Source of the DNA: Escherichia coli
GTDB taxonomy: Bacteria > Pseudomonadota > Gammaproteobacteria > Enterobacterales > Enterobacteriaceae
Reading direction: 5' to 3' (one strand)
NCBI RefSeq assembly: GCF_016026235.1
Contig: NZ_CP065613.1
DNA: 64,000 nt
A program made the position numbers and the translations under genes. Shown here piece after piece: positions 46,774 through 46,974 of the stretch (positions within the stretch are counted from its first letter, which is position 1; each line of letters begins with the position of its first letter). The notes under the pieces are model-generated. The model did no database searches, was not told the origin of the DNA, and was given only the letters and a program-made list of their open reading frames with translations.

Positions 46774-46974
46774 GGGGTGTTAGCCAGCCAGACCCGGCAT
46801 GATTACTGCCCCCAGTCGTCCATGATCCGGGGGGTGATGTCACCGGGTCTGGTGGGGCGCTGGTAACCGCTAATAGGGGTCAGGTCAGGCACTTTTGCCG
46901 GGACCGTCTGTAACGTGGATGCCGGTACCTGCTCCCCGTGGTTATCTGGTTAACCCATATACAAGGGAGACAGA

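Follow-up and report, generated by a model that had tools for sequence, protein, structure and literature searches.

The question raised by this locus is what a short repeat in front of a transposase gene is for. The stretch of Escherichia coli DNA under study (64,000 nucleotides, hereafter the window) carries at 46975-48171 an open reading frame within a stretch that RefSeq annotates as 'IS110-like element ISEc20', an annotation present in more than 1,100 E. coli genomes. The leader upstream of this frame contains the 9-mer TAATAGGGG at 46871-46879, and a second exact copy lies at 48186-48194. These are the only two copies in the window; shuffled windows contain 0.38 copies on average, and 6 of 100 shuffles reach two or more. 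The leader segment had been proposed to be a guide in the target-binding loop of a bridge RNA. Here, we consider it very likely that this segment is the donor-binding loop of the ISEc20 bridge RNA, the target-binding loop being the first domain of the same leader. Hence, the kind of feature that had been predicted is retained, but its assignment to the target is not.

The limits of ISEc20 were derived by comparing the window copy with insertions in a chromosomal island (L001), in an enterotoxigenic E. coli plasmid near cfaD (L002) and in rtcB (L003), and with two empty sites. The four independent insertions have in common the left end CCCCGTTACTT... and the right end ...ACTTAATAGGGGC[A/C]CCCCCC (the latter also written AATAGGGGC[A/C]CCCCCC). 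The empty autotransporter site (L004) reads atttCCCCCCCCacgat / gcaatttCCCCCCCCacgat and has 8 C, and the occupied site in the window has 4 + 7 C. The empty rtcB site (L085) reads gactgCCCCCCCCCgcgag with 9 C, and occupied rtcB has 5 + 7 C, the same 3-C overlap as at the autotransporter gene. Two empty sites and four insertions define the ends: the insert is 1452 bp long, and it lies in a C-run target. As three C could belong to either end, these limits have an uncertainty of 3 nt, and 46745-48196 is equally valid. The element in the window is an intact ISEc20 copy, a member of the IS110 family (IS110 group), lying in a C-run inside an autotransporter gene. With the limits taken from the empty sites, its left end (46748-46974) is 227 nt long, non-coding and upstream of the gene, and its right end (48172-48196) is 25 nt long. 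The parts of the element and its target are as follows.

46748..48199, + strand: ISEc20 insert, 1452 bp, GTTACTT...AATAGGGGCA plus CCC (empty-site comparison)
46744..46747, + strand: left remnant of the host C-run target, CCCC (empty-site comparison)
48197..48203, + strand: right C-run, 7 C, of which up to three come from the element and the remainder from the host target
46747..46752, + strand: left-end terminus CGTTAC, right donor half-site and complement of the leader's GTAACG
48186..48196, + strand: right-end terminus TAATAGGGGCA, left donor half-site, kept at independent sites and in relatives and absent from the empty sites
46975..48171, + strand: recombinase gene, 398 aa (Pfam and phmmer)

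The empty sites and the common ends show that both strings previously read as host flanks belong to the ends of ISEc20, and that host DNA here is the C-run only. The stretch at 48186-48194, which had been called the right-hand target flank, is common to the four insertions and missing from the empty sites, and CCCCGTTACT, which had been called the left flank, is also missing from them. CGTTAC is unchanged in all independent insertions and relatives, and it too is absent from both empty sites. The ACTT direct repeat, proposed as a target duplication, falls inside the element and was ruled out as such by the independent insertions and the empty site. Furthermore, the two halves of the autotransporter gene join in frame (I V G G E I) only with the C-run boundaries; with ACTT boundaries they are out of frame. 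The host gene is of the ECSE_1600 family and lies on the minus strand, where the C-run forms the Gly codons GGG GGG.

The recombinase has an N-terminal DEDD (RuvC-like) domain (DEDD_Tnp_IS110, PF01548, 1.2e-47, residues 14-168) and a C-terminal Tnp domain with the catalytic serine (Transposase_20, PF02371, 3.7e-21, residues 277-358). In a phmmer search it matched the solved transposases of IS621 (8wt6, E = 1.6e-14, with SGSS aligned) and ISCro4 (9t56), and it is a member of this recombinase family. The leader RNA was folded from 46778 to 46974, and its minimum free energy (MFE) lies at z = -3.0 relative to shuffles. The centroid fold consists of two large domains, the second of which corresponds to the segment that had been marked at 46862-46928. 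The features that concern the donor are the following.

46859..46925, + strand: second structured domain, donor-binding loop domain (centroid fold)
46871..46879, + strand: left donor guide UAAUAGGGG, identical in 9 of 9 positions to right-end 48186-94, covarying with the right end
46910..46915, + strand: right donor guide GUAACG, complementary in 6 of 6 positions to left-end CGTTAC (46747-52)

An internal loop separates the outer from the inner helix of the second domain in the centroid fold, and the two donor guides occupy its opposite sides (5′ and 3′), as expected of a donor-binding loop. The helices around this loop covary among relatives, with a score that none of 500 shuffles attains and, in the inner helix, double changes at 6 of 8 pairs. 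Of the two guides, UAAUAGGGG reads in the sense of the right-end terminus and GUAACG in antisense to the left-end terminus. GTAACG had been correctly recognised as the reverse complement of CGTTAC, but it lies at 46910-46915, not at 46911-46916. In the bridge RNA described in PMC11208160, left guides pair with the bottom strand, and are therefore read as the top strand, right guides pair with the top strand, and the donor is the junction of the right end with the left end. The two guides of ISEc20 follow this polarity.

To follow the loop through evolution, relatives were collected in a scan of one genome per species, which gave 80 loci encoding recombinases 71-93% identical to that of ISEc20 (all 71-81%, except L019 at 93%). 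They come from Burkholderiaceae, Oxalobacteraceae, Microbacteriaceae, Arthrobacter and other taxa. In most of them the right end reads cTTGAC(stop)-N6-7-ATAGGGGCAC followed by a C-run, the left end is a C-run followed by GTTAC, and the leader can be aligned with that of the window; in about 12 loci (e.g., L040, L045, L047 and L048) a right end could not be recognised, and in three more it is eroded. The part of the left donor guide conserved throughout the family is AUAGGGG[C/U], at 46873-46880. Where both parts are present (n = 67), the four variable loop bases and the corresponding right-end bases are GGGG/GGGG at 46 loci, GGGA/GGGA at 13 and GAGG/GAGG at 6. Hence, 65 of 67 loci are concordant, and the two discordant ones are both apparently decaying copies. 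On a neighbour-joining tree of the recombinases, GGGA appears in two separate clades, one proteobacterial and one actinobacterial, and GAGG in a third, so that at least three independent concerted changes have occurred.

The original prediction had proposed to look for covariation of the loop with flanking host DNA, and it had named the same loop at unrelated targets as the observation that would speak against it. When the leaders are aligned, the loop tracks the right end and not the host DNA. The same loop and the same 'flank' occur in copies in the autotransporter gene, in rtcB, in a plasmid intergenic region and at about 60 sites in other phyla. From L005 to L084, recombinases 71-81% identical are accompanied by near-identical guides, ends and C-run target across E. 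coli, Burkholderiales and several actinobacterial families; this implies a broad horizontal spread in which the specificity stayed frozen. Separately, the leader of L079 (571-600) carries a 7-nt duplication (GCTAATA GCTAATAGGGGC) exactly at the donor guide.

The other parts of the leader were then assigned as listed here.

46762..46778, + strand: 5′ stem-loop ACCCC-TTATAAT-GGGGT, the 'similar string' of the original prediction, with a covarying stem
46783..46858, + strand: first structured domain, target-binding loop domain (fold and covariation of the outer helix)
46805..46813, + strand: candidate left target guide ACUGCCCCC, same sense as the left target, with only CCCCC (46809-13) conserved
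46829..46836, + strand: right target guide GGGGGG plus a handshake-type UG (GGGGGGUG), complement of the right junction

The stem of the 5′ hairpin occurs among relatives as CCCC/GGGG, CCTC/GAGG and CCTT/AAGG, and the hairpin agrees with the consensus of IS110 bridge RNAs, which has a 5′ stem-loop (PMC11208160). In the first domain, the outer helix shows compensatory changes at 6 pairs (33 relatives). In 37 of 56 loci the right junction, CA + C6, is matched exactly by the reverse complement of GGGGGGUG, and six is also the commonest length of the C-run after CA. Variant guides match their own variant junctions: GGGGGGGG with CCCCCCCC in L002, GGGGUGUG with CACACCCC in L046, and GGGGGUG with CACCCCC in L074. 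In L002, the right end (GGGGCC) and the leader (GGGGGGGG) are both altered from GGGGCA and GGGGGGUG; L001 has GGGGCC with an unaltered leader. Handshake guides have been described for IS621 (PMC11208158), and a terminal UG opposite the donor CA fits that description.

On the left side, ACUGCCCCC is identical to the left flank of rtcB, gACTGCCCCC. When the four bases 5′ of CCCCC were compared with the left flanks of 54 distinct insertion sites in a permutation test, 73 matches were counted against 69.4 ± 5.1 expected (p = 0.27), and these bases were not retained as a programmable target guide. The base 5′ of the G-run (C or U) was also compared with the base after the C-run; the result was suggestive only and was rejected as evidence. 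Since the right guide matches the junction and no link is seen between the left flanks and the bases preceding CCCCC, the target recognised by ISEc20 is essentially the C-run. Because this target is a homopolymer, the C5 (46809-46813) and G6 (46829-46834) guides are mutually complementary, and they are paired with each other in the MFE fold of the free RNA.

By analogy with IS621, these parts would work together as follows. The 227-nt left end would encode a bridge RNA made of the 5′ hairpin (46762-78), the target-binding loop domain (46783-858) and the donor-binding loop domain (46859-925). In the excised circle, the ends would be joined as ...AATAGGGGCA-CCC-GTTACTT... (also written ...TTGACAACTTAATAGGGGCA-CCC-GTTACTTTATT...), and the RNA would hold this junction: UAAUAGGGG(U), on the loop's 5′ side, would pair with the right end's bottom strand, and GUAACG on the 3′ side with the top strand at the first bases of the left end. 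The first loop (CCCCC and GGGGGGUG) would hold the C-run in the target, and the DEDD/serine recombinase would exchange strands within the common C's. Three C are common to insert and target at both sites, which is compatible with a CC core; since the target is a homopolymer, the exact position of the core within these three is hidden. The junction variants, the handshake logic and the run lengths leave two registers, with the right end as ...GGGGCA or as ...GGGGCAC. The crossover (core, putatively CC) is probably in or adjoining the left C-run remnant at 46744..46747.

The RNA could be transcribed from a promoter formed upon excision, as in IS621.

48177..48182, + strand: TTGACA, candidate -35 box of a promoter that would be complete only in the circular right-end/left-end junction

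Relatives conserve the sequence cTTGAC, which overlaps the stop codon. A promoter scan of the integrated copy found no site for the leader; TATAAT at 46768-73 falls within the 5′ hairpin's loop, and upstream of it the best -35 hexamer is CCGTTA (16-nt spacer), which matches in only 2 of 6 positions. Between the bridge RNA and the start codon (window 46929-46972), CUGCUCCC can pair in the MFE fold with GGGAGACAG, which contains the ribosome-binding site; this predicted pairing may occlude translation.

Several observations weigh against the assignment of the segment to a donor-binding loop. The match of the left donor guide ends before the C core, the leader having GGGG-U-CA and the right end GGGG-CAC. 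The IS621 guide reads into the core and the ISEc20 match does not; therefore, ISEc20 either uses a different register or pairs discontiguously. No variation is seen in GUAACG or CGTTAC, which leaves the right donor half without support from covariation, assigned by its sequence and position. In the free RNA the loop could close by pairing of its two sides (94% of cells can form pairs, with no compensatory change). The right end of the plasmid copy L002 contains AATCGGGG together with an unchanged donor guide. In the modelled circle junction the -35 is perfect, and the best -10 (GTTACT at 17 nt or TACTTT at 19 nt) matches in 3 of 6 positions. Finally, a scan of 46500-48500 against Rfam 15 gave no match at E ≤ 1.

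Three other explanations of the repeat were weighed. It might be a feature of the DNA, either two recombinase-binding sites or self-similar element ends, with no RNA guide involved. A related string, CTTATAATGGGG, is indeed present in the left end (at 46766-46777, and not at 46765-46776 where it had been placed), and the concerted change of two DNA sites could follow from an altered protein specificity. However, that string makes up the loop and stem of a hairpin that covaries, and the leader copy of the 9-mer belongs to an internal loop whose flanking helices covary as RNA helices do. In addition, the second guide is antisense and not a repeat, and the recombinase belongs to a family for which RNA guidance has been shown structurally (PMC11208158). 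We regard this explanation as very unlikely.

Alternatively, AUAGGGG could match the right end incidentally and serve only as half of an intramolecular helix, the other half being GUCYGUA on the 3′ side. RNAalifold does pair the two strands, and the same 94% of cells form standard pairs; but no pair shows an informative compensatory change, and shuffles equal the observed values. The GAGG class breaks two of six pairs (A-C and G-G) and keeps its identity to the right end, and the three independent concerted changes with that end would be left unexplained. There is hardly any chance that such a helix accounts for the repeat, and the pairing represents, at most, the free RNA in a closed conformation. 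As for a target-binding loop with TAATAGGGG and CGTTAC as host flanks of a 4-bp ACTT duplication, the 9-mer does match, and the arrangement of sense and antisense strings agrees in general with a bridge RNA loop, but the uninterrupted host locus should then carry CGTTACTTAATAGGGG, and this explanation is next to impossible, already refuted by the empty sites, which have neither string, by the constancy of both strings at unrelated sites and across phyla, and by the reading frame of the host gene.

The donor-binding loop assignment has consequences for annotation. To our knowledge, IS110 elements have no inverted repeats; therefore, a chance 4-bp repeat such as ACTT can mimic a target duplication, and a donor guide then looks like a target guide. 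The boundary error is corrected here, and the comparison with empty sites settles the question. Loop and right end covary naturally in three lineages, which is an independent confirmation of the donor-guide rule in a branch far from IS621, and the guide map (donor ATAGGGGCA/CGTTAC, target C-run) may aid the annotation of ISEc20, ISSfl4 and ISBma3 or the choice of orthologues for engineering. The result itself opens no new question.

Some side observations were made on the host gene and on the C-runs. The minus-strand frame of the autotransporter gene is broken at window 49887-49939, where the open reading frames 49887-51917 and 48185-49939 overlap in different frames, and the gene may carry a frameshift besides the insertion. 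In an rtcB-family gene of E. coli Z1323PEC0008 (L086:300-364), annotated as frameshifted, the target run has 63 C versus 9 C in L085; this could be an expansion at the insertion target or an assembly artefact. At least 44 C follow the right end in Georgenia thermotolerans (L082, from ~1920) and 12 C in L060, where six are usual. Just downstream of the stop codon, L005, L036 and L025 have ATAGGGCCCCC, ATAGGCCCCC and ATAGCCCCC, respectively, instead of ATAGGGGCAC, as though the C-run had taken over these right ends step by step; in L005 the target guides are altered as well (CCGCC and GGAGGG). In Cupriavidus laharis (L031:1915-1945), the right end ATAGGGGCAC directly abuts GTTACTAC (GTTACTACAC) with no C-run; the abutting sequence resembles the left-end terminus and adjoins a cytosine-methyltransferase-like gene, and the arrangement may reflect recombination at a donor-like pseudo-site.

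The long tracts, the eroded ends and the L031 arrangement suggest register slippage in a homopolymer. In a wider proposal, which we consider doubtful, a widespread IS110 subgroup (ISEc20, ISBma3 and their proteobacterial and actinobacterial relatives) would be dedicated to C-tracts, with complementary guides and a crossover that slides in the run, and insertion or excision in a shifted register could alter the tract length and erode the right end. If true, such sliding would explain the 63-C rtcB tract, the tract of at least 44 C in Georgenia, and the right ends ATAGGGCCCC..., ATAGGCCCC... and ATAGCCCC....

Among known systems, ISEc20 was compared with the IS1111 group. Both have a recombinase of the same superfamily and the RNA-guided principle (seekRNA or bridge RNA), but IS1111-group elements encode the RNA downstream of the gene, within a long right end, and have long subterminal inverted repeats, whereas in ISEc20 the predicted RNA lies upstream, the right end has 25 nt and the only inverted pair is the 4-bp AATA/TATT.

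IS621 (Durrant et al. 2024, PMC11208160; Hiraizumi et al. 2024, PMC11208158) has in common with ISEc20 a DEDD plus serine Tnp recombinase, a long left and a short right end, and an RNA upstream of the gene in which a 5′ hairpin is followed by the target loop and then the donor loop, each loop with a same-sense 5′ guide and an antisense 3′ guide. In both, the two nucleotides after the right target guide complement the last two of the left donor half (handshake type), and a -35 box, in ISEc20 a candidate one, lies in the right end. The recombinases are nevertheless distant: the C-terminal domain aligns with E = 1.6e-14 and the N-terminal domain barely aligns, and in this weak alignment the second catalytic acid of ISEc20 appears to be D, not E. 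The target of ISEc20 is a homopolymer C-run, with mutually complementary C5/G6 guides, versus a mixed 14-mer in IS621; its donor guide match, ATA + GGGG(C), ends short of the core; and 16 nt instead of 14 nt lie between the short inverted repeats AATA/TATT.

Also close are ISSfl4, ISBma3, IS110 and related entries in Supplementary Tables 1 and 5 of Durrant et al. 2024 (PMC11208160), which are of the same recombinase cluster and are listed with a left-end bridge RNA; the ISEc20;ISSfl4 cluster itself is in Supplementary Table 5. Beyond this listing, a search of the available literature library on the guides or targets of ISEc20, ISSfl4 and ISBma3 found no specific description of the loops. In the relatives that we fetched, the right end is likewise ATAGGGGCAC, the left end CGTTAC and the target a C-run. 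ISEc20 differs from them in having TAAT instead of ACAT before AGGGG, and U for C at the last guide position, which gives a G-U wobble. ISEc20 has the recombinase domains, end lengths, fold with helix covariation, donor loop and target loop of an IS110-group bridge RNA element. Given these features and the listing by Durrant et al. 2024, the feature is already known in kind and expected for ISEc20; the guide map and the corrected assignment of the loop are what is added here.
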